A stretch of DNA of 64,000 nt from a virus, in the IMG/VR virus record IMGVR_UViG_3300013137_002966, positions 29,723 through 93,722 of that record; one strand, 5' to 3'. Positions 54,956-64,000 of this stretch are shown here, in pieces. Each line of letters begins with the position of its first letter. The stretch's first letter is position 1. The notes beneath the pieces are model-generated. The model was given only the letters and a program-made list of their open reading frames with translations. It was not told the origin of the DNA and searched no databases. A program made the position numbers and the translations under genes.

Positions 54956-57463
54956 TTATTGTAACACAATCTTTTTAACACTCATTTCTGAACCATCATT
55001 TATTTTTAAATAATAAATACCTTTTGAAAAACTTGTAATATTAATTTGCTCATCATGATTTTGAATATTTTTTAATTCGTTATAATATACAACTTGTCCA
55101 GATGCATTAATCATCTGAATTTTCATATCAGTACTCTTATTATTTATAAAACTAATAGTAAATTTATCATCAACCGGATTAGGATAAACATTAATTCTAT
55201 TTTCTAATGTATAATCATTGACACCAGTACCATAATTAACAATTACAAAATATTCAACAAATGAACAATTTTCTGCCCAAACAGTATAAACAACAGGTGT
55301 AATAAAATCATTAACAGTAACTCCATTAACCTGAGTAATATTATTATGCGTCAACACTGAACCATCACTAGTAACAAAACTAGCTACTAAATTAGTTTTC
55401 TCTATTCTCGTAGGAATTAACAATTCAATAGTCTTACTAGTTTCATTAATGGTTCCAATTATATCAGTGCGTAGTTCTCTGTTATTATCAGAATCAAACC
55501 AATAATTAAGTAATTTTTTTTCACTATTTTCTGGTCGAACCACTGCAGTAACTGTATAAGTTTTAGAAACACCAGATTCTGATGTAATGATAATATTAAT
55601 TGGATTAGTCAAATCAATAACACCAGATGTTCTTGAAGAAGTAGCGCCATCACTAATAACAAAAGAAGAAAATAAAGTTGATAAATTAGTACCATATTTA
55701 ACAGAAACTGTAATATTATTATCAGTGTAAACACCTGGTACAATATATCTAACACCAAAACAATCAGTTAAAGTCAATTTAAAGTCAATTAAATCGTTAC
55801 CAGTCTTGGCAGGTATTTTAGAAACTATAACCTCATATCTTTCTTGAGTTCCATCTTCAGCAGTAACAACATATGTTAAAGCATTAGAATAATTATTAAT
55901 ATTAAAATCACTTATTTGTGGCGTAAAAGTACCATTACTTTCAGCAATAGATACACAAGAATAAATACTACTAGTAAAATATGCTCTTAATTGATAAAGA
56001 TTAGTATTATAAGGAACAATTACATTAATTCTTTTAAGATTCTGATCAATTGAGCCAGAATAAATTGAATCAGGCCATGAAAAACCCCATCCAGTATTTG
56101 TAGCCTTATTAAATCCAAAAGTTAAAATTTGTTTAGTATTACTAGGTACTCCAGCATTAATAATAACAGAATATGTCTTAGTTGTAATACCATCTTCAGC
56201 AGTAATTACAATTGTATTATTGCTAGAATTAAGAACCGTACCAATAGGATCAGAAGTACGAGCCAATAACGAAAAAGTCTCACCATGAATAGTTAAACTG
56301 TTAACACCATAAGGAACATTAAATGTAATAGTATTAGTTCCAATTACACCTAAAACATTACCAGTATAATTCACACCACATAAATTAACTTTAGAATAAT
56401 TTGCATCAATTGAAATTAAATCGCAACCAGTTTTAACAATATCTTTAGTAACAGTTAATGTAAAATCTGACACTTCACTTTTTAATTCAGCTTGAACCCA
56501 AAAATGTAAAACTGTCACGTCACCAGTCAAAGGAAATGATGTACCCGAGCAAATTTCATTGGTTAATGTAGATTCACTAAACATATGTGCATATGGTGAA
56601 ATTGCCCAAACAGGAGCAATAATTGTTGCAGAATATGGAACTACAGCCGTAATATTTTGTGTATTATAATTTACAACAGCTGGTGTTACAGCATTAGGAA
56701 CAATAAATGATAATAAATTATCCTGAATACTAGCAGGTCCCACAATTGGGAGAACAGAATAATTGTGCGCTACACCAGATTGTGAAGTAACAACAAAAAT
56801 CTTTGCTTCTGGAATACCATTATTATCAATATCAAAATCTTGAGCGGTAAAAGAGGTAAAATTACAAGTCGCATAAGGACTAATTGTAAAACGAACCGTA
56901 AGATCATCTAACCTAGCACCAAACGGAACAGGAAAAGTTATATTATCACCAGAAATAGTACCAGGTTCTGTTTGTAAAAACGTACCATTAGGTTCACATG
57001 GACCTGTCCAATTTTTAGCCCAAGCACCACTAAAAGTCAATATACTATTTTCTGTTGATGGAGGTCTAGTAGATATTGTTACTACATAATTTTCATATGA
57101 TAGATTTTCAGCTTGAACAGTCAAAGTTACTGGTTGAGTATAATTCCAACTCGTAATATTTGATACTGCTAATATACCTAATGTTGGATTAGCACCAAAA
57201 AATACCTTAGAAAATTCACTAGAAGTAAAAGTTGCCTTTAATGCAGTAACATTAGTAGCATAAGGTACTGTAATAGCTACTGTACGATTTGCTTGATTAA
57301 TAACTCCTGATATATCAGTTTGTAATTCAGAATTAAATGTTGTTTCAAATCCAAATGTCAACAACATTTTTGCAGAGCTTAAGTTTTGAGCCGATCCCCA
57401 AGAAAAGCTTAGAGCCAACATAATGGCTAGTAAACTAAAAAATTTTCGTAAATGTTTAATCAT
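54956..57463 (-). CDS. Secreted Ig-like repeat (DUF5018-like) protein with T9SS C-terminal sorting domain
   Basis: Signal peptide; VTAEDG/VTSESG repeats; VYPNP...GIYYLKI...KKIV C-terminal domain. Confidence 0.85.
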   Translation of the reverse strand: MIKHLRKFFSLLAIMLALSFSWGSAQNLSSAKMLLTFGFETTFNSELQTDISGVINQANRTVAITVPYATNVTALKATFTSSEFSKVFFGANPTLGILAVSNITSWNYTQPVTLTVQAENLSYENYVVTISTRPPSTENSILTFSGAWAKNWTGPCEPNGTFLQTEPGTISGDNITFPVPFGARLDDLTVRFTISPYATCNFTSFTAQDFDIDNNGIPEAKIFVVTSQSGVAHNYSVLPIVGPASIQDNLLSFIVPNAVTPAVVNYNTQNITAVVPYSATIIAPVWAISPYAHMFSESTLTNEICSGTSFPLTGDVTVLHFWVQAELKSEVSDFTLTVTKDIVKTGCDLISIDANYSKVNLCGVNYTGNVLGVIGTNTITFNVPYGVNSLTIHGETFSLLARTSDPIGTVLNSSNNTIVITAEDGITTKTYSVIINAGVPSNTKQILTFGFNKATNTGWGFSWPDSIYSGSIDQNLKRINVIVPYNTNLYQLRAYFTSSIYSCVSIAESNGTFTPQISDFNINNYSNALTYVVTAEDGTQERYEVIVSKIPAKTGNDLIDFKLTLTDCFGVRYIVPGVYTDNNITVSVKYGTNLSTLFSSFVISDGATSSRTSGVIDLTNPINIIITSESGVSKTYTVTAVVRPENSEKKLLNYWFDSDNNRELRTDIIGTINETSKTIELLIPTRIEKTNLVASFVTSDGSVLTHNNITQVNGVTVNDFITPVVYTVWAENCSFVEYFVIVNYGTGVNDYTLENRINVYPNPVDDKFTISFINNKSTDMKIQMINASGQVVYYNELKNIQNHDEQINITSFSKGIYYLKINDGSEMSVKKIVLQ

Positions 57464-57574
57464 AATTAAAATTGTTTTTTTTTGTTAATATTAAAAAATC
57501 TATTATTGTATTCGCATAATAGATTTCAATCTTATATAAATAAATTTATAAGAAGTTTAAAAAAAGTGAATTTG

Positions 57575-57648
57575 TGCATTCAGAGAGATTCGAACTCTCA
57601 TCTATATCATTCGCAATGATATCCTCTATCCAATTAAGTTATGAATGC
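57575..57648 (-). tRNA. tRNA-Arg(GCG)
   Basis: Cloverleaf; anticodon arm TATCA-TTGCGAA-TGATA; TTCGAAT T-loop. Confidence 0.85.
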
Positions 57649-57675
57649 GTTATTTCAAGCTACAGATATATTTTG

Positions 57676-57747
57676 TGCACCCAGCAAGATTCGAACTCGC
57701 ACACGATGGGTCGAAACCACCGATCCTTCCATTTAAATGATGAGTGC
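57676..57747 (-). tRNA. tRNA-Arg(TCG)
   Basis: GGTGG-TTTCGAC-CCATC; TTCGAAT. Confidence 0.85.
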
Positions 57748-57753
57748 ATTTTT

Positions 57754-58236
57754 TTAGACAGAGCCAAATATGGAAGCATCAACTTTTCTTAACTTATCTC
57801 TCCTTAAAATTATATTCTTATATTTTTTAATATCCTTATTACCTTCATCTAAACACTGTTCCAATAAATCATTAGTTTCATTCATCACAATTTTTTTTGT
57901 CCAATTTGAGCTATTATCACCATAATGATTAGTATCAAATCCAATCATCCAATAACCATCAAAATTTTTATAATTTTCTAATGTTATATCACCATCAAAC
58001 TCTCTATCACCTATCCATTCTAGAAAATATTCAGCTTCAAATTTTTGTGCAAAAGTCAATCCACCATGTATTCTTACATCATTTATATTATCATAATCTT
58101 TTCCATAAAAAGGATGATTTGGAGGTAATAAAACATAACCAGTACCCCAACCGTAATCAAAACCAATATCAAACATACTAAGTTTTGACTTGCTTAAAAT
58201 ATTCTCAATTATTAATGTGTATATTCCATATTTCAT
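57754..58236 (-). CDS. Conserved phage hypothetical protein within the tRNA array
   Basis: GYV..P..HP.YG, IHGGLTF, GFDTNH; TATCTTTG element at 58241-58248 just upstream of the ATG. Confidence 0.75.
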   Translation of the reverse strand: MKYGIYTLIIENILSKSKLSMFDIGFDYGWGTGYVLLPPNHPFYGKDYDNINDVRIHGGLTFAQKFEAEYFLEWIGDREFDGDITLENYKNFDGYWMIGFDTNHYGDNSSNWTKKIVMNETNDLLEQCLDEGNKDIKKYKNIILRRDKLRKVDASIFGSV

Positions 58237-58317
58237 AATACAAAGATAATAAAAAAAATTAATATTGGTGAATTTTTTTATGTAACGCACAATTTGTTAA
58301 AAAAATTGTTAAAAATG

Positions 58318-58391
58318 CGTGAGTGGAGGGTCACGATCCCCCAACCTTTTGATTAACAGTCAAATGCTCTAACCAATTGAGCTACACTCAC
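58318..58391 (-). tRNA. tRNA-Asn(GTT)
   Basis: TTTGA-CTGTTAA-TCAAA; G73; T-loop ATCGTGA. Confidence 0.9.
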
Positions 58392-58405
58392 TTATGTAAA
58401 ATTTG

Positions 58406-58488
58406 TAGTGTCGATGGGACTCGAACCCATATTTGCAACATACCAAATTACAGTTCTCGAAAGTATCAGTTTCGGCTGGTACGACACC
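58406..58488 (-). tRNA. Non-canonical tRNA-like RNA, anticodon GAT (Ile), no D-arm at the normal position
   Basis: Acceptor GGTGTCG/CGACACT; CGAAA-CTGATAC-TTTCG follows directly; canonical T-arm. Confidence 0.75.
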
Positions 58489-58494
58489 ATATTG

Positions 58495-58575
58495 TACTGG
58501 AGGTTGGATTCGAACCAACGTTTTCAACTTCCCACTACGTGTATAGAAGGTATAAGCTTCCAACGGTACCCCAGC
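58495..58575 (-). tRNA. Non-canonical tRNA-like RNA, anticodon TAT (Ile), same architecture
   Basis: GCTGGGG/CTCCAGT; GGAAG-CTTATAC-CTTCT; T-arm GTTGG-TTCGAAT-CCAAC. Confidence 0.75.
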
Positions 58576-58584
58576 ATAATTTTG

Positions 58585-58658
58585 TGGGTATGACAGAACT
58601 TGAATCTGTGACCTTTTGATTATCAGTCAAATGCTCTAACCAACTGAGCTACACACCC
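58585..58658 (-). tRNA. tRNA-Ile(GAT)
   Basis: TTTGA-CTGATAA-TCAAA; A73. Confidence 0.92.
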
Positions 58659-58662
58659 ATAT

Positions 58663-58764
58663 AGATTAAATGTGAAAGATTCGAACTTATCACCACCTCG
58701 TACCTGCCGAGATATTACGGATTGATTACCGTAAGTACTAACCACTTATACGAACATTTAATCT
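58663..58764 (-). ncRNA. tRNA-like RNA with 11-bp acceptor-type stem, 8-nt anticodon loop and variable arm
   Basis: AGATTAAATGT/ACATTTAATCT; D-loop AAGTGGTTA; TTACGG-TAATCAAT-CCGTAA; CTCG/CGAG; TTCGAAT. Confidence 0.7.
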
Positions 58765-58766
58765 TG

Positions 58767-58851
58767 TACCGTGAGTGGGAGTCGAACCCACGATGTCCTT
58801 ACGGACGGAGGCTTATGAGGCCCCTGCGATAGCCACTCCGCTCACCACGGT
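58767..58851 (-). tRNA. tRNA(CAT) (Met or Ile2) with long variable arm
   Basis: GGGGC-CTCATAA-GCCTC; V-arm GTCC-GTAA-GGAC. Confidence 0.85.
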
Positions 58852-58856
58852 ATTTG

Positions 58857-58941
58857 AGACGCTGATCGGACTCGAACCGACATACCCTTTCGGGATTGAC
58901 AGTTTTGCAGACTGCTAGCTAAACCATTCACCCACAGCGTC
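58857..58941 (-). tRNA. tRNA-Cys(GCA) with long variable arm
   Basis: GCAGT-CTGCAAA-ACTGT; V-arm CCC-GAAA-GGG; U73. Confidence 0.88.
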
Positions 58942-58956
58942 ATATAAAAAAATTTG

Positions 58957-59038
58957 TGGGAATAGATGGACTCGAACCACCGAACTCATACGAGAGCTGA
59001 TTTACAGTCAGCCGCAATTGCCACTATGCGATATTCCC
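58957..59038 (-). tRNA. tRNA-Tyr(GTA)
   Basis: GCTGA-CTGTAAA-TCAGC; V-arm; A73. Confidence 0.93.
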
Positions 59039-59110
59039 GTGGTATAAAGGTATCAGTAGCTTTCCTTTATCTTTCACTTTTTATCACCATTGCTACTATG
59101 TTGTGATAAA
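59039..59110 (-). ncRNA. Two-hairpin element with complementary loops
   Basis: TTTATCAC/GTGATAAA and ATAAAGG/CCTTTAT stems; loops contain AGTAGC and GCTACT. Confidence 0.55.
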
Positions 59111-59117
59111 CTCAGAG

Positions 59118-59192
59118 CACCCCTGAACGGTTACAATCCGTTTATTTTACTAAAGTGACAGTCTAGTTCTCCATCAAGGAGCCTACAAGGGT
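59118..59192 (-). tRNA. Divergent tRNA-Asp(GTC)
   Basis: ACCCTTG/CAGGGGT, G73, CTAGA-CTGTCAC-TTTAG; atypical D- and T-loops. Confidence 0.7.
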
Positions 59193-59199
59193 AATTTTG

Positions 59200-59267
59200 T
59201 GCCACCGGAAGTATTCGAAACTTCGAGCTGGGGTTTTACAGACCCGTCTTCTCCCTGGATCGTTGGC
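59200..59267 (-). tRNA. Short (68 nt) tRNA-Tyr(GTA)-like RNA with reduced D-arm and no V-arm
   Basis: GGGT-CTGTAAA-ACCC; GAAGT-TTCGAAT-ACTTC. Confidence 0.7.
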
Positions 59268-59272
59268 ATTTG

Positions 59273-59346
59273 CGGGGTTGACGGAACTCGAATCCGCGAC
59301 CACTTGAGTGACAGTCAAGTATTCTAACCATCTGAACTACAACCCC
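59273..59346 (-). tRNA. tRNA-Asp(GTC)
   Basis: CTTGA-CTGTCAC-TCAAG; G73. Confidence 0.93.
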
Positions 59347-59688
59347 TTAAAAACCAAATTCATTATAAATTCTAAGCCAATTTTTAATTGAATTACCAGT
59401 TACTCCATATTTTCTACCAGTTCCTTCTAAACCTAAAAGGTTTATTTCTTCAACTAATTTTTCATAAGGTGGTCTTTCAACTTTTCTTTGATTTATATAT
59501 GATTTTATTTCTTCTTTTGTAAATCCTTTATCATTTCTCTCTTTTTTAATATATTTTTTTGTTTCATATACAATTCCAACTTTTATTTTTTCAACTTTAT
59601 CGTTATTAGTAAGTTTAAATTTTAATATCTCAATTACATTTTCAATGTTATTTTTTACTTCATTTTCTGATACTCTAATCAATAGCAT
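59347..59688 (-). CDS. Truncated endonuclease remnant with HTH (DUF559-like tail)
   Basis: LIRVSENEVKNNIENV resembles a Vsr/DUF559 C-terminus; GRKYGVTGNSIKNW HTH. Confidence 0.5.
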   Translation of the reverse strand: MLLIRVSENEVKNNIENVIEILKFKLTNNDKVEKIKVGIVYETKKYIKKERNDKGFTKEEIKSYINQRKVERPPYEKLVEEINLLGLEGTGRKYGVTGNSIKNWLRIYNEFGF

Positions 59689-59712
59689 CTCATTGTAATC
59701 TCACACCTCCTG

Positions 59713-59783
59713 TACTCCCAGCGGATCCTGAGACCGCATCTTATCCTTGAAGGGGATATATCCTGCCTTTAGAAGATGGGAGC
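59713..59783 (-). tRNA. Divergent tRNA-Glu(TTC)
   Basis: GCTCCCA/TGGGAGT; TATCC-CCTTCAA-GGATA (C33); atypical T-loop. Confidence 0.75.
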
Positions 59784-59892
59784 ATGTTAAGGAAAACAGA
59801 ATACATTTTTTATTTGAATAAACGGTTCAATTTTTTTAGAATTGCTGTACGTATTCTTTATTTCCTTAATATTTTTCAAAAATTCACCAATA

Positions 59893-59903
59893 TGTCAAAG
59901 AAC
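59893..59903 (-). promoter_or_regulatory. rrn-type boxA antitermination element
   Basis: GTTCTTTGACA between the attenuator and the first tRNA. Confidence 0.65.
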
Positions 59904-59930
59904 CCTCACTTTATCAACTTCACTAAAAAC

Positions 59931-59963
59931 AAAAAACCCAGTCTTTTTTTGGACTGGGTTTTT
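59931..59963 (-). terminator. Attenuator 1 terminator
   Basis: AAACCCAGTC-CAAAAAAA-GACTGGGTTTTTT. Confidence 0.9.
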
Positions 59964-59983
59964 ATAATTTTTTTATAATTAGA

Positions 59984-60076
59984 TTATGATACTTCCAGTC
60001 CATATAGAGCATAATCCTCACATTCATTAATATTATTAATGTTGCGATAATCACATATGTTCATTCGGTTTTTCAT
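59984..60076 (-). CDS. Leader peptide 1 (MKNRMNICDYRNINNINECEDYALYGLEVS)
   Basis: 30-aa ORF; contains TGGACTGG, complementary to the terminator 5' arm. Confidence 0.85.
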   Translation of the reverse strand: MKNRMNICDYRNINNINECEDYALYGLEVS

Positions 60077-60139
60077 AACTCTTTTCTTTCTATTAATTTG
60101 TTTTATTTCTTACTTTATTTTTACTTCTCTTATAGAATA

Positions 60140-60170
60140 CAAATATACAAAAGTTTTTTTAATTTACAAA
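60140..60170 (-). promoter_or_regulatory. Bacteroidota sigma70-type promoter
   Basis: TTTG (60170-60167), 19 nt spacer, TATATTTG (60147-60140). Confidence 0.75.
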
Positions 60171-60199
60171 TATATATTAAATATTTTTTTCGTTTTTTT

Positions 60200-60490
60200 C
60201 TACTTTTTTTTATTTAGTTGATATTTAGATAATTTTATTATTCTTATAAATTTTTTATTGACTTGGTTTTTAGGTACTGTGTATAAAAATATAATTCTTT
60301 GTAACCATTTTATGTTTCTAAGAGTAATCAGATTATCTAATTTAATGAATAAGTGATATTTTCTGATTTGTTTTTTAGTAAATTTTTTTCTTTGTGTATA
60401 AAATTCACTAAATATTCTTTTATGAAAATAGTTAAAGTGTATTTTTTTCCACCACCAAGTTCCTCTATAAGTAATTAAAATTTTAAAAAT
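60200..60490 (-). CDS. Possible 96-aa basic protein with ATT start
   Basis: 97-codon open frame with no ATG/GTG/TTG; AAGGAG directly before ATT. Confidence 0.4.
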   Translation of the reverse strand: MFKILITYRGTWWWKKIHFNYFHKRIFSEFYTQRKKFTKKQIRKYHLFIKLDNLITLRNIKWLQRIIFLYTVPKNQVNKKFIRIIKLSKYQLNKKK

Positions 60491-60509
60491 ATTCTCCTTT
60501 CTTATTTAG

Positions 60510-60583
60510 TTGCGAATGGTTGGATTCGAACCAACGACCTCGAGCTTATGAAACTCGCTAGCTGACCACTGCTACACACCGCA
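60510..60583 (-). tRNA. tRNA-Met(CAT), initiator-like body, divergent
   Basis: CGAGT-TTCATAA-GCTCG; extra nucleotide in the acceptor stem. Confidence 0.8.
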
Positions 60584-60599
60584 ATATTCTTTTATTTTG

Positions 60600-60672
60600 T
60601 TGCGGGAGAAGGACTTGAACCTCCGACCTTCAGGTTATGGGCCTGACGAGCTACCAACTGCTCTATCCCGCG
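60600..60672 (-). tRNA. tRNA-fMet(CAT)
   Basis: C1:A72 mismatch; TCAGG-CCCATAA-CCTGA. Confidence 0.9.
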
Positions 60673-60680
60673 ATATATTT

Positions 60681-60779
60681 TTATGTCAAATGTCCAACTG
60701 AACCAAATGAATCACCAGCTTTTTTCTTAGCAACTATCATCAAAACAAATAATGCTATTATAATACCTATTACTATCAT
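60681..60779 (-). CDS. Small single-TM protein (32 aa)
   Basis: MIVIGIIIALFVLMIVAKKK...; starts just after the stop of 60782. Confidence 0.5.
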   Translation of the reverse strand: MIVIGIIIALFVLMIVAKKKAGDSFGSVGHLT

Positions 60780-60781
60780 TT

Positions 60782-61138
60782 TTATACTTTTTTCAAATTT
60801 GTTATAAAATCTTCTGTAGATATTTTATAATCTGAATAATCACAAATTACCTGATAATTAATATTTACAAATTCTTTTATCTTTTCTAGTACTTCTGTTG
60901 TTATTAATTTATTGTTAACCTCTCCAATTATTTCAAATTTCGGTATAGTAAGAACAAAACTATCAGATGGATCGAATGAATTTTTAACATTACAAACTTT
61001 AATTCTTCTCCAATGTTTACCAGGATTAGGTCCTATCCATAAAACAACATCTTTTATACCAGTTGTTTTAGAAGAAACGTTAGACATTTCTAATAGTTCT
61101 TGTTCCTGATATTCTTTATATTCTAATATTTTTTTCAT
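60782..61138 (-). CDS. Hypothetical protein under attenuator 2
   Basis: MKKILEYKEY...LLEM N-terminus. Confidence 0.75.
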   Translation of the reverse strand: MKKILEYKEYQEQELLEMSNVSSKTTGIKDVVLWIGPNPGKHWRRIKVCNVKNSFDPSDSFVLTIPKFEIIGEVNNKLITTEVLEKIKEFVNINYQVICDYSDYKISTEDFITNLKKV

Positions 61139-61332
61139 TTTTTTTTCTCTTCTTTTTCCAGTTTCTTTTTTATTTTTTCCATTAGTTCTTCAACTTTTGT
61201 ATTCATACCTTTTTCAGTTTTTGGAACATCTTTATCGTCTATGTTCAACTGGTCTGCTAATTTAATAAATTTTTCTGTTAACTCGGACTTTTTTTTAAGT
61301 TCTTCGTAATTTTTTTGTATTTTTTCAGCCAT
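61135..61332 (-). CDS. Small charged protein directly after the attenuator 2 U-tract
   Basis: ORF; ATG abuts the terminator. Confidence 0.65.
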   Translation of the reverse strand: MAEKIQKNYEELKKKSELTEKFIKLADQLNIDDKDVPKTEKGMNTKVEELMEKIKKKLEKEEKKK

Positions 61333-61363
61333 AAAAAAACCCAGTCATTTTTTGTGGCTGGGT
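61333..61363 (-). terminator. Attenuator 2 terminator
   Basis: ACCCAGCCA-CAAAAAA-TGACTGGGT-TTTTTT (one mismatch). Confidence 0.85.
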
Positions 61364-61390
61364 ATATATTGAAGGCTTTCGCCTAGAGTT

Positions 61391-61459
61391 TTATCCAGCC
61401 AATTGAGAGGTATCATTAATCATCTCATAACACATCTCTATATATAAATTACGATACAT
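61391..61459 (-). CDS. Leader peptide 2 (MYRNLYIEMCYEMINDTSQLAG)
   Basis: 22-aa ORF; contains TGGCTGG, complementary to terminator arm CCAGCCA. Confidence 0.8.
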   Translation of the reverse strand: MYRNLYIEMCYEMINDTSQLAG

Positions 61460-61573
61460 CTTCTTTCTTTCTTGTTTTATTTTTTAATATTAGTAACTCT
61501 TTTTAGTAAGGTTTAATTTTTGTTATATATTTCTTTAAAAATGTCGTTTTTTCTATTTTTATATCTTCTTTTA

Positions 61574-61604
61574 CAAAGATAGGATATTATTTTAATACTA
61601 CAAA
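61574..61604 (-). promoter_or_regulatory. Bacteroidota sigma70-type promoter
   Basis: TTTG (61604-61601), 19 nt spacer, TATCTTTG (61581-61574). Confidence 0.75.
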
Positions 61605-61607
61605 ATA

Positions 61608-62735
61608 TTATTCATTTTTTAATTGTTCTAAAAACTTATATGCTTTCTTATGATAATCTCTATCTTTATAATTGCTTGTCATTAGGTATGTGATATAGCA
61701 GAAATATAATAATTTACTAATTATTAAGTCTTTATTTACCTGTCCACCAACAAATCTATATTCAACATAGTTTTTTGTCTTAAGATAGCCGATATTAAAA
61801 CCAAAATGTTTAACACCTATTTTATTAATATAATCAACTAAGAAATTATTAAAAAAGGTTTCTACTTCCCGTAGGTTATGAAGGTCTAGAGAATCAAATT
61901 TTGCTTTTTGTTTAGCAGGTAAAAATAATAAAGATCTTTTAACTGATGTACAGAATTTACTATTTAATCTTTCAATCATATCTCTAAACACAAAAGGTAT
62001 ATCATCAAAATCATAGTCATCTAATATAACTAAACCTTTGAGAGCATTAAAATCCTCATATTTCTTTCCTTTAATTCCAATGTTTATATGTAATCCTGTG
62101 GTTTGAGTAAATTTCCAATAGTTTTGTTTATCAAAATCATTAAAGAAATCTTCTAAAAGTTTTAAAGTTGTATCTAATCCTAGCAGATAAGTTTTTGGCT
62201 TGAATTCTATACCTCTTTCTAGTGTTGCATCTAATACAAATTCTAGATCGTTGCTATATTTTGCGTAAAAATTGGGTAGATACCTTTCGACATTTTCTTC
62301 GAGATACTCTCTATTTTCTCTTAATAATAGCGTTTTTATGGCTTTTTCCATACCTATTATTATATTTTTCTCAATTTCTGTAGAATATAATTGTGGATCC
62401 AGAAGCTTATTAATTTTGCTTTCTAATTTTTTAGTGCTAAGTTCTTGATATAGATAAGACTCTATAGTATCTACTATATTGTTAATAAAAGGTTTATTTT
62501 TCTTGACTTCTGATTGGTTGAGATCAATATTATATACTGTTAATTCTTTGAGACATATTTCTCTGAATTCATCAACATCATCATAGTCAAAATTATCGTA
62601 GGTTATATCGTGATGTTCTAAGTCGTTGGTTTCCAATTCAAATTCAATAGCAATAGTAAAATCCTTAGCTATTTCTTCTGATTTAATTCGCTGAATGTCT
62701 TTGATATTAAATTCGTAGAATTTTTCTATTTTCAT
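61608..62735 (-). CDS. Putative amidoligase (COOH-NH2 ligase type 2)
   Basis: AIEFELET, GIEF, TGLHINIG, VEYRF.GG. Confidence 0.7.
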   Translation of the reverse strand: MKIEKFYEFNIKDIQRIKSEEIAKDFTIAIEFELETNDLEHHDITYDNFDYDDVDEFREICLKELTVYNIDLNQSEVKKNKPFINNIVDTIESYLYQELSTKKLESKINKLLDPQLYSTEIEKNIIIGMEKAIKTLLLRENREYLEENVERYLPNFYAKYSNDLEFVLDATLERGIEFKPKTYLLGLDTTLKLLEDFFNDFDKQNYWKFTQTTGLHINIGIKGKKYEDFNALKGLVILDDYDFDDIPFVFRDMIERLNSKFCTSVKRSLLFLPAKQKAKFDSLDLHNLREVETFFNNFLVDYINKIGVKHFGFNIGYLKTKNYVEYRFVGGQVNKDLIISKLLYFCYITYLMTSNYKDRDYHKKAYKFLEQLKNE

Positions 62736-62744
62736 AAATAGAAT

Positions 62745-62945
62745 TTATTTTTTAATTTTGCTTTTAAGTTTATCTATTAATTCGTTAGCTTTATTTATTC
62801 CTAGTTTTGCCTTCATAGAGTGGTATAAATTATAAAACTTTTCAGCAAATTCATCTTCGACTTCCATATTCATTGGTGCATCTTCTGAATCTCCAAATAA
62901 GCTATCTGCTAAATTATATTCTTCAAATGTTTTAACTTTTTTCAT
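62745..62945 (-). CDS. Hypothetical protein
   Basis: MKKVKTFEEY start. Confidence 0.65.
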   Translation of the reverse strand: MKKVKTFEEYNLADSLFGDSEDAPMNMEVEDEFAEKFYNLYHSMKAKLGINKANELIDKLKSKIKK

Positions 62946-63118
62946 AATAGAATTTTTTCTACTATATATAAAAAATAAAAAGGATAATTTCTTATCCTTT
63001 TACTTAAATTACTACAGGTATTTATTTCCACTATGGTAGCCCGAACCTTATCTTTTTTGGATTAAGTGACACTTATGCCTTGTGATCTTTTTAGTCCTGC
63101 ACCGACAGTTTCTATTTT

Positions 63119-63463
63119 TCAATGGAACAGATTTCCACTTCGGTTAGTAATTTGTTTAGCAAAAATATTAATAACTAAATTATTAGATTTCTTACTACTT
63201 GGAATTAAAGAATTTAATTGGATTTGGTTATTATCATATTCATAAGTAGCACTCACATTATTAAAATAGAGTTTACCTTGTTCAAAAATTCTTTCATTAT
63301 CAGTCATAGAGAGAAAATCTAATTTTTGAAGTGTATCATTCATTTTATCATAAAAGAACCACTGATATAATTTTGATTTATCAGTTTCTTTTGAATAATG
63401 ATATTTTATTTCAAATAGTGTGTATAATTCGTTATCAAAGATATATTTAATAGTATTTTCCAT
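63119..63463 (-). CDS. Hypothetical protein
   Basis: ORF. Confidence 0.6.
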   Translation of the reverse strand: MENTIKYIFDNELYTLFEIKYHYSKETDKSKLYQWFFYDKMNDTLQKLDFLSMTDNERIFEQGKLYFNNVSATYEYDNNQIQLNSLIPSSKKSNNLVINIFAKQITNRSGNLFH

Positions 63464-63466
63464 TTT

Positions 63467-64000
63467 TTAATGTTTACTAATTCTAACATGTTTAAGTTTA
63501 CGGAAAAGATCACCATGTTCAAGTGAGGATTCATATTCGCCATCATTATCAGAATACTCAAAAATATAAAGTGCAAAATCTGGTAGTTCACCATTTATTC
63601 TCTTAAGTTTATTTTTTCTAATGTTAAGAATATCATTAAGTTTTTTATTGCCATATTTTATACAAGCTTTACGATATTCTTCCCATCTTTTTTGTCTATC
63701 ATTTATATATTCAAAATCATCGTAATCTGGTGCGTCATAATCATCCGCTATACCGCTACTAAGTTCTTTAGAAGCTTTTTCAAAATCATTTTTAGTTTGA
63801 TTACAAATATCATTCCACACTGTAGTTGCAACATTATTTATGCTCCAACTATTATCATCAAAATGAGGACTATTATAAACTCTTTGTTTTTTATCAAAAA
63901 GCATATCTCTAACATCTTCCATAGATTTAGGTTCTCTCGGAAAGATTACAATAAAGCTACTTGAGCTACTATTACTTACAAATCCATTTCTTATTTTCAT
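63467..64000 (-). CDS. Conserved phage protein (MKIRNGFVSNSSSSSF family)
   Basis: Characteristic N-terminus. Confidence 0.75.
   Translation of the reverse strand: MKIRNGFVSNSSSSSFIVIFPREPKSMEDVRDMLFDKKQRVYNSPHFDDNSWSINNVATTVWNDICNQTKNDFEKASKELSSGIADDYDAPDYDDFEYINDRQKRWEEYRKACIKYGNKKLNDILNIRKNKLKRINGELPDFALYIFEYSDNDGEYESSLEHGDLFRKLKHVRISKH

Follow-up and report, generated by a model that had tools for sequence, protein, structure and literature searches.

Here, we describe leader-peptide units that stand ahead of a tRNA gene array on the minus strand of a viral DNA stretch, the final 64 kb of the 93.7-kb IMG/VR record IMGVR_UViG_3300013137_002966 (hereafter, the window; positions are counted from its first nucleotide). 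Two such units precede the array, each combining a Bacteroidota-type promoter, a short open reading frame (ORF) rich in codons for the amino acids that the array serves, and an intrinsic terminator whose 5' arm is complementary to the last part of the ORF. We consider it probable that each unit is a ribosome-mediated (leader-peptide) transcription attenuator that gates host RNA polymerase into the phage tRNA genes. With such an arrangement, the phage would probably make the tRNAs of the array only when ribosomes decode the sensor codons of the leader slowly. The case is carried by the anatomy of the units, the covariation of both alternative helices, the geometry of the stop codon, and the fact that leaders and arrays change in content together among related giant phages.

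Anatomy of the two leader units

Unit 1, the one nearer to the array, comprises the following features.

60140-60170, minus strand: promoter of unit 1, TTTG-N19-TAtaTTTG, Bacteroidota type (pattern match)
59984-60076, minus strand: leader ORF of unit 1, 30 sense codons plus stop, with codons 3-22 as the sensor run
59995-60002, minus strand: 5' strand of the unit 1 antiterminator, TGGACTGG, 8 nt, complementary to CCAGTCCA at 59957-59950
59931-59963, minus strand: intrinsic terminator of unit 1, CCCAGTC-N8-GACTGGG followed by T6

A self-search of the record showed that the terminator recurs 1.4 kb upstream of unit 1, as part of a paralogous unit of the same architecture (unit 2).

61574-61604, minus strand: promoter of unit 2, TTTG-N19-TAtcTTTG, Bacteroidota -33/-7 type (pattern match)
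61391-61459, minus strand: leader ORF of unit 2, 22 sense codons plus stop
61395-61401, minus strand: 5' strand of the unit 2 antiterminator, TGGCTGG, pairing with CCAGCCA at 61361-61355
61373-61384, minus strand: small GNRA hairpin AGGC-GAAA-GCCT, which the minimum-free-energy fold of unit 2 places inside the loop of the antiterminator
61333-61363, minus strand: intrinsic terminator of unit 2, a 9-pair stem with one C.A mismatch, then T7

The initial annotation concerned unit 1, and all the coordinates it gave for the promoter, the ORF, and the terminator were verified in the sequence, as was the complementarity of the antiterminator strand to the 5' arm of the terminator. Its placement of the array behind a single unit was not borne out. 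No terminator was seen between unit 2 and unit 1, so that the two units would act in series.

Codons 3-22 of the unit 1 leader encode exclusively Asn, Arg, Met, Ile, Cys, Asp, Tyr, and Glu. This restriction to eight residues, which had been singled out from the start, holds over 20 consecutive codons and constitutes the longest such run across the six frames of the window, the runner-up reaching 15. The eight residues make up 0.436 of all residues in the long ORFs of the window, and the chance of a 20-codon run is therefore 0.436^20, or approximately 6e-8, per start position. For Arg, this leader uses CGA and CGC, codons that make up 4.6% and 0.6%, respectively, of all Arg codons in the window (AGA, 81%) and correspond to tRNA-Arg(TCG) and tRNA-Arg(GCG) of the array, in agreement with the earlier claim that rare Arg codons had been matched to array anticodons. 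In the unit 2 leader, 14 of the 15 codons following the start fall within the same residues, with CGT as the Arg codon, and both units share one eight-amino-acid sensor set.

The full Bacteroidota promoter pattern was found twice on the minus strand of the window, each time ahead of a unit. Among the units collected from relatives (see below), it lies upstream of 21 of 50, compared with 1.2% of background 200-nt segments, a strong enrichment that accords with the host-type promoter originally assigned to the leader. The unit promoters in L094-L105 display an extended consensus, approximately TTTGG..A.TAAAA....TAnnTTTG, which reaches beyond the usual Bacteroidota -33/-7 boxes.

Covariation of the alternative helices and position of the stop codon

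Homologous units were obtained from a terminator-pattern scan of viral contigs and from a metagenome scan with a 118-aa protein encoded between the two units. The gene order is shared by the closest relative (G006) and by about 15 further metagenome contigs, and exact-word searches for both leaders in viral contigs returned G006 as the only match. For unit 2, homologs from about 12 metagenome contigs keep 0.88-1.00 of the sensor region within the eight-residue set; for unit 1, the corresponding proportion of sensor residues is 0.77-0.95 (G006, L115, L116, L119, L121, L123, L125, and L128). The order of the residues in the middle of the homologous leaders is scrambled while their composition is retained, and the N-terminal residues are fairly conserved within each leader class. 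Behind seven homologous unit 1 leaders, every tRNA called by ARAGORN (45 of 45) is specific for Tyr, Ile, Glu, Asp, Asn, Cys, Met, or Arg. The eight-residue set was first picked after seeing the sequence, and the downstream tRNAs of these relatives fix it independently.

Alignment of 19 homologous units (A4) revealed that the antiterminator helix is 97.7% paired and that four of its seven pairs carry compensatory changes. Its covariation score, its percentage of pairing, and its count of doubly changed cells were each matched by none of 500 shuffles, while the number of pairs changed on both sides was reached by 5 of 500. Sliding the antiterminator partner by a single column lowered the pairing to below 50%. 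The terminator helix is 98% paired across the same units. A compensatory change also separates the two units of the window, in which TGGCTGG/CCAGCCA of unit 2 stands in place of GGACTGG/CCAGTCC of unit 1. Furthermore, the mismatch in the terminator of unit 2 falls where the antiterminator pair remains G-C, and the same combination of a retained G-C pair in the antiterminator and a C.A mismatch in the terminator occurs in L120, suggesting that the antiterminator itself is under selection.

In all 19 units, the stop codon lies 0-8 nt past the antiterminator strand (1 nt in unit 2) and a spacer of 22-30 nt leads to the terminator. Given this placement, a terminating ribosome would cover the antiterminator strand. 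The leaders measure approximately 70-100 nt and contain no conserved multi-stem architecture. Small hairpins equivalent to the GNRA hairpin of unit 2, with altered stems, are present in the homologs L118, L120, L123, L126, and L131.

Matching of leaders to tRNA blocks in related giant phages

A comparison of tRNA regions covered the published 735-kb phage LR756501 and five large related records (G001-G005; the three that are 95-97% complete measure 385-476 kb). Nearly every tRNA block in these genomes lies behind a short ORF and a terminator, the ORF being enriched in the amino acids of its block. Short leader ORFs were found in 50 units across the relatives, with 5-7 different leaders in each genome and at least seven leader classes overall. 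A leader with five consecutive Gln codons precedes three Gln tRNAs, a Ser-rich leader that also contains Arg precedes Arg and Ser tRNAs, and a Leu-rich leader precedes five Leu tRNAs. Likewise, a His/Lys/Phe/Trp leader is followed by His, Lys, Phe, and Trp tRNAs, a Tyr-Tyr-Tyr-Glu leader by Glu/Tyr arrays, an Ile/Ala/Gly leader by Ile(TAT), Gly, and Ala tRNAs, and an Asn/Leu/Met/Thr/Val/Ile leader by a block of up to 18 tRNAs.

The true pairing of leaders with blocks was the single best of 5040 permutations in both G003 and G002, and the best of 120 permutations in both G001 and G004. At the codon level, standard wobble rules allow 90% of the amino-acid-matched leader codons to be decoded by an anticodon encoded downstream. 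Across lineages, Gln tRNAs occur in four array contexts, i.e. alone, with Asp/Pro, with Met/Ile/Glu, and after Asp/Pro, and in all four the leader holds Gln codons together with codons for the co-resident amino acids. The leader follows the context of the Gln tRNAs each time, a pattern of co-variation and not of simple co-inheritance. The permutations, the Gln contexts, the codon match, and the uniform specificity of the tRNAs behind the unit 1 homologs all indicate that leader codon sets and array anticodons co-vary in related giant phages.

In many relatives, the first tRNA begins 8-21 nt past the terminator. This spacing leaves no room for a promoter, and the tRNAs concerned would thus be reachable only by read-through. 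The system is not universal among megaphages, since a scan beside the tRNAs of the gut megaphage Lak-B5, a Prevotella phage, found no leader/terminator units.

A model of attenuation and its alternatives

In the proposed mechanism, RNA polymerase would initiate at the Bacteroidota-type promoter and transcribe a short ORF, the middle of which is written almost solely in codons served by the tRNAs encoded downstream, and the final codons of which include 7-8 nt able to pair with the 5' arm of the terminator 22-30 nt beyond the stop. A lead ribosome keeping pace with the polymerase would have reached the stop codon or its vicinity and would occlude the antiterminator strand, whereupon the terminator would fold and transcription would end. 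Slow decoding at any sensor codon would leave that strand free to pair with the 5' arm of the terminator, and read-through into the tRNA genes would follow. The outcome would be a negative feedback on the supply of the sensed decoders, with units 2 and 1 gating the array in series and sensing their common eight amino acids. We infer from the sequence that the leader is translated and that stalling on it causes read-through; the scheme further presumes kinetic coupling between RNA polymerase and the ribosome.

Folding of the nascent RNA in ViennaRNA with the ribosome footprint masked was consistent with this mechanism. In unit 1, the antiterminator forms 7-8 pairs when the P site is placed at codons 5-20 and none when it is placed at codon 22 or at the stop, while the fold of unit 2 switches between P-site codons 14 and 17. 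When no ribosome is placed on the nascent RNA, both units adopt the antiterminator fold. A leader hairpin also appears in the full-length RNA of unit 1, without covariation support. These switching folds, together with the antiterminator covariation, the stop-codon geometry, and the co-variation of leader and array, support the attenuation of the trp/his type that the initial annotation had read into unit 1, and the two alternative structures it had postulated exchange as predicted in the masked folds, for unit 2 as well as unit 1.

Several observations weigh against this mechanism. The full-length RNA of unit 1 thermodynamically favors the terminator, so that the choice between the two structures must be kinetic. 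No clear region-1 protector hairpin was seen in the folds of units 1 and 2; untranslated RNA would therefore default to read-through, unlike in the trp attenuator. A duplex-energy test over all leader classes, which relied on crude arm definitions, detected significant antiterminator complementarity in 13 of 34 units, and none for the short Gln leader. Because of these crude definitions, the column-wise covariation count on one homologous class was used instead. The related genomes are, moreover, non-independent samples. In unit 2, one conserved Leu codon is without a cognate tRNA. Glu codons are retained in the leader despite the dead-looking Glu tRNA of the window. Finally, 585 nt, with a probably decayed tRNA and a 113-codon ORF, separate the unit 1 terminator from the first solid tRNA, and this gap could accommodate an internal promoter. 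The -7 box of a 161-codon ORF may be another internal promoter before the Arg tRNAs.

The switch could also be real and yet act as a general gauge of translation rate or as a timer, opening on any slowdown of overall translation (as in late infection, host shut-off, or amino-acid starvation), with the codon match as a by-product of the codons that the phage must itself supply. Since no protector hairpin is present, any delay of the lead ribosome or failure of initiation would result in read-through, and leaders that pool up to eight amino acids would integrate the total delay. The nearest published system, the trn operon of Anabaena, is reported to be induced by general translational stress (PMC8421152, PMC10272220). 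We nevertheless regard such a gauge as unlikely, since it needs no block-specific leaders, yet each genome carries 5-7 leaders that are each matched to their own block, and the choice of leader codons tracks the anticodons.

Far less plausible still is that the short ORFs are free-standing micro-genes that encode small peptides under their own promoters and terminators, with the tRNAs being transcribed independently. Each unit does possess a promoter and a terminator of its own, and the N-terminal residues are fairly conserved per class. The window also offers space for a promoter ahead of its first tRNA, with a sigma-70-like match at 59898-59871, between the unit 1 terminator and that tRNA. 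However, micro-genes would not account for leader middles whose order is scrambled among homologs while their composition is kept, for a composition that follows the downstream tRNAs over at least seven classes, for an antiterminator that covaries with the terminator, or for tRNAs that begin within 8-21 nt of the terminator in relatives.

An RNA-only switch, with T-box-like tRNA binding or a protein-bound leader and an incidental ORF, would share with T-box leaders the link between tRNA status and the antiterminator/terminator choice, but we give it hardly any credence, since neither unit matches a T-box or other Rfam cis-regulatory family (T-box scan: no match at E up to 1 within 55000-64000, nor at E up to 10 within 58395-59930, a range outside both units), all 19 units combine an in-frame ATG with a stop codon close behind the antiterminator strand, many sensor codons take the place of one specifier, and the short leaders are without conserved multi-stem architecture. 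Leader-peptide attenuation thus remains our preferred reading.

The tRNA array and neighboring genes

The tRNA genes were called by ARAGORN and Rfam. From unit 1 onward, the array and its surroundings are arranged as follows.

59712-59785, minus strand: 'Glu' tRNA, probably a decayed tRNA-Glu(TTC) remnant, without an Rfam or ARAGORN call
59347-59688, minus strand: 113-codon ORF within the array, with no family and no significant match among solved structures
58317-59346, minus strand: main tRNA block (ARAGORN, Rfam), in the order Asp-GTC, Tyr-like GTA (borderline), Asp-like (doubtful), Tyr-GTA, Cys-GCA (86 nt), CAT (86 nt), 98-nt gene, Ile-GAT, Ile-TAT (borderline), Ile-like (doubtful), Asn-GTT
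57754-58239, minus strand: 161-codon ORF, PHROG 2164 (unknown function), closely preceded by a TAtcTTTG box of its own
57574-57747, minus strand: tRNA-Arg(TCG) and tRNA-Arg(GCG), matching the leader codons CGA, CGC, and CGT
57493-57525, minus strand: possible AT-rich hairpin and T-run closing the array, a weak feature read from the sequence
54956-57463, minus strand: 835-aa repeat protein that ends in a type IX secretion sorting domain, directly downstream of the array

The tRNA inventory that the initial annotation had listed was a little too long. ARAGORN gives solid calls for nine genes downstream of the leader (Asp, Tyr, Cys, CAT, the 98-nt oddity, Ile-GAT, Asn, Arg-TCG, and Arg-GCG), and Rfam supports eight of them, the 98-nt gene being without an Rfam tRNA match. 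Two more are borderline by Rfam, namely the Tyr-like gene (28.2 bits) and Ile-TAT (29.8 bits), and three are doubtful, among them the 'Glu' gene, which looks decayed. It aligns to intact Glu(TTC) tRNAs behind the homologous leader in G006, L119, L123, and L125, and differs in having C33 instead of U33, no variable arm, and a non-canonical T-loop, features that mark it as probably a dead copy.

Some of the tRNA genes are unusual in structure. Long variable arms in bacteria are normally confined to Leu, Ser, Tyr, and Sec tRNAs. The Cys (GCA) and CAT tRNAs at 58766-58941 (minus strand) are both 86 nt in length and carry long variable arms, as do their counterparts in L106, L119, L123, and L125, and relatives commonly encode Glu, Asn, Met, Lys, and Thr tRNAs with lengths of 85-91 nt. 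An 8-nt anticodon loop is displayed by the 98-nt gene of the window (58664-58761, minus strand) and by tRNA-like genes in L095 (4918-4990) and L099 (9450-9522). For such genes, ARAGORN reports four-base anticodons, 'atca' in the window and 'acat' beside the Met tRNAs of G002 and G003. Two neighboring Ile-like RNAs at 58405-58575 (minus strand), with TAT and GAT loops, possess a non-standard D region and score 29.8 and 16.6 bits in Rfam. Separately, G002 encodes a solitary tRNA with a CTA anticodon (L100, 3133-3205), an amber suppressor labeled Pyl by ARAGORN, which hints at TAG recoding in that genome.

The region between the two units, from 60509 to 61332 on the minus strand, holds three ORFs and two CAT tRNAs.

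61332-61135, minus strand: 65-aa ORF
61138-60782, minus strand: 118-aa ORF
60779-60681, minus strand: 32-aa ORF
60672-60599, minus strand: CAT tRNA with a C1.A72 mismatch
60583-60509, minus strand: second CAT tRNA

The C1.A72 mismatch suggests that the first of these CAT tRNAs is an initiator tRNA. Contig depth in the lake metagenomes rises more than 100-fold at 60596-60711, over this gene, indicating that it is close (approximately 8-12 differences over some 55-60 nt) to tRNAs on many contigs of the community. The 118-aa protein is kept at 44-81% identity in about 20 contigs, always adjoining a CAT tRNA; its structural model is confident (pLDDT 81.6) and found no match in the PDB at E <= 0.001. 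No clear fold match was obtained for the proteins between the units, and no Pfam family scored above threshold for the proteins in or beside the array. Their PHROGs matches are to families of unknown function, and one match to a tail chaperone (E = 0.009) was discounted.

According to CheckV, the record is 18% complete, which implies a genome of about half a megabase; the GC content of the window is 26%. The same DNA is present in lake-water metagenomes, with no RNA run listed as containing it, and both units are identical in contigs from four further lake-water metagenomes, which therefore offered no informative variants. The type IX secretion sorting domain in the gene adjoining the array points to a Bacteroidota host. 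A synteny search with a 375-aa neighboring protein identified a sole viral relative (L003, 84% identity), in which no tRNAs or units were found downstream.

Relation to known attenuators and significance

In enterobacteria, multivalent leader attenuators are exemplified by the thr leader (Thr and Ile) and the ilvGMEDA leader (Ile, Leu, and Val), besides the his, trp, leu, and phe leaders. The phage units resemble them in their short leader rich in regulatory codons, in their mutually exclusive antiterminator and terminator hairpins, and in the decisive position of the lead ribosome, with translation of the leader being predicted here. They differ in that tRNA genes are regulated rather than biosynthetic enzymes, so that the output is the decoder and not the amino acid, in that one leader would sense up to eight amino acids, and in the lack of a clear 1:2 protector hairpin. 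In addition, they are phage-encoded, carry Bacteroidota-type promoters, and divide the amino acids among 5-7 units across the genome. The pheST attenuator of Escherichia coli, with its pheM leader, controls phenylalanyl-tRNA synthetase and is thus similar in applying leader-peptide attenuation to a translation component that serves the sensed codon; there, however, the target is a synthetase protein, a single amino acid is sensed, and the system is cellular rather than viral. T-box riboswitches likewise let tRNA status set the choice between antiterminator and terminator upstream of translation-related genes, but they bind the tRNA directly through one specifier codon and without a ribosome, whereas the phage units contain no T-box motif and instead an ORF with a fixed stop-codon geometry.

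Closest in physiology is the trn operon of Anabaena sp. PCC 7120, a 26-gene tRNA array that is normally silent and induced under translational stress (PMC8421152), with TrcR as its repressor (PMC10272220). This accessory tRNA array is likewise off until translation is impaired, but it is reported to be controlled by a transcriptional repressor protein instead of a leader peptide, and it constitutes one array-wide switch on a cellular megaplasmid rather than a set of amino-acid-matched units in a phage.

A search of the full-text literature, with subscription journals outside its coverage, found no description of leader-peptide control of tRNA genes. The initial annotation, likewise, was aware of no described multi-amino-acid attenuator over a phage tRNA array. 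The paper on the Lak megaphages makes no mention of attenuators, leaders, or terminators. The mechanism of attenuation is of a known kind; its target, the tRNA genes, and its logic are new.

The natural trigger may be the cleavage of host tRNAs, rather than an imbalance of supply and demand or a general slowdown of translation. More tentatively, Bacteroidota giant phages may operate a genome-wide tRNA supply partitioned by amino acid, in which each block opens on a shortage of its own decoders, including shortages caused by anticodon nucleases or by tRNA decay after shut-off, and which would serve as an inducible counter-defense derived from classical attenuation, with the phage replacing just those tRNAs that are attacked.

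Transcription of tRNA genes is usually described as being under the control of promoter strength and growth rate. If our reading is correct, an attenuator ahead of tRNA genes would provide direct feedback from decoding speed to decoder supply, and would account for the grouping of giant-phage tRNA genes into amino-acid blocks. The leaders would then give a readout, from sequence only, of the codons that the phage treats as limiting. Being compact (approximately 150 nt) and modular, the units may also be of use as sensors for the supply of specific tRNAs. Finally, the debated role of phage tRNAs, whether they compensate for codon usage or replace tRNAs destroyed by host defenses, would become testable.

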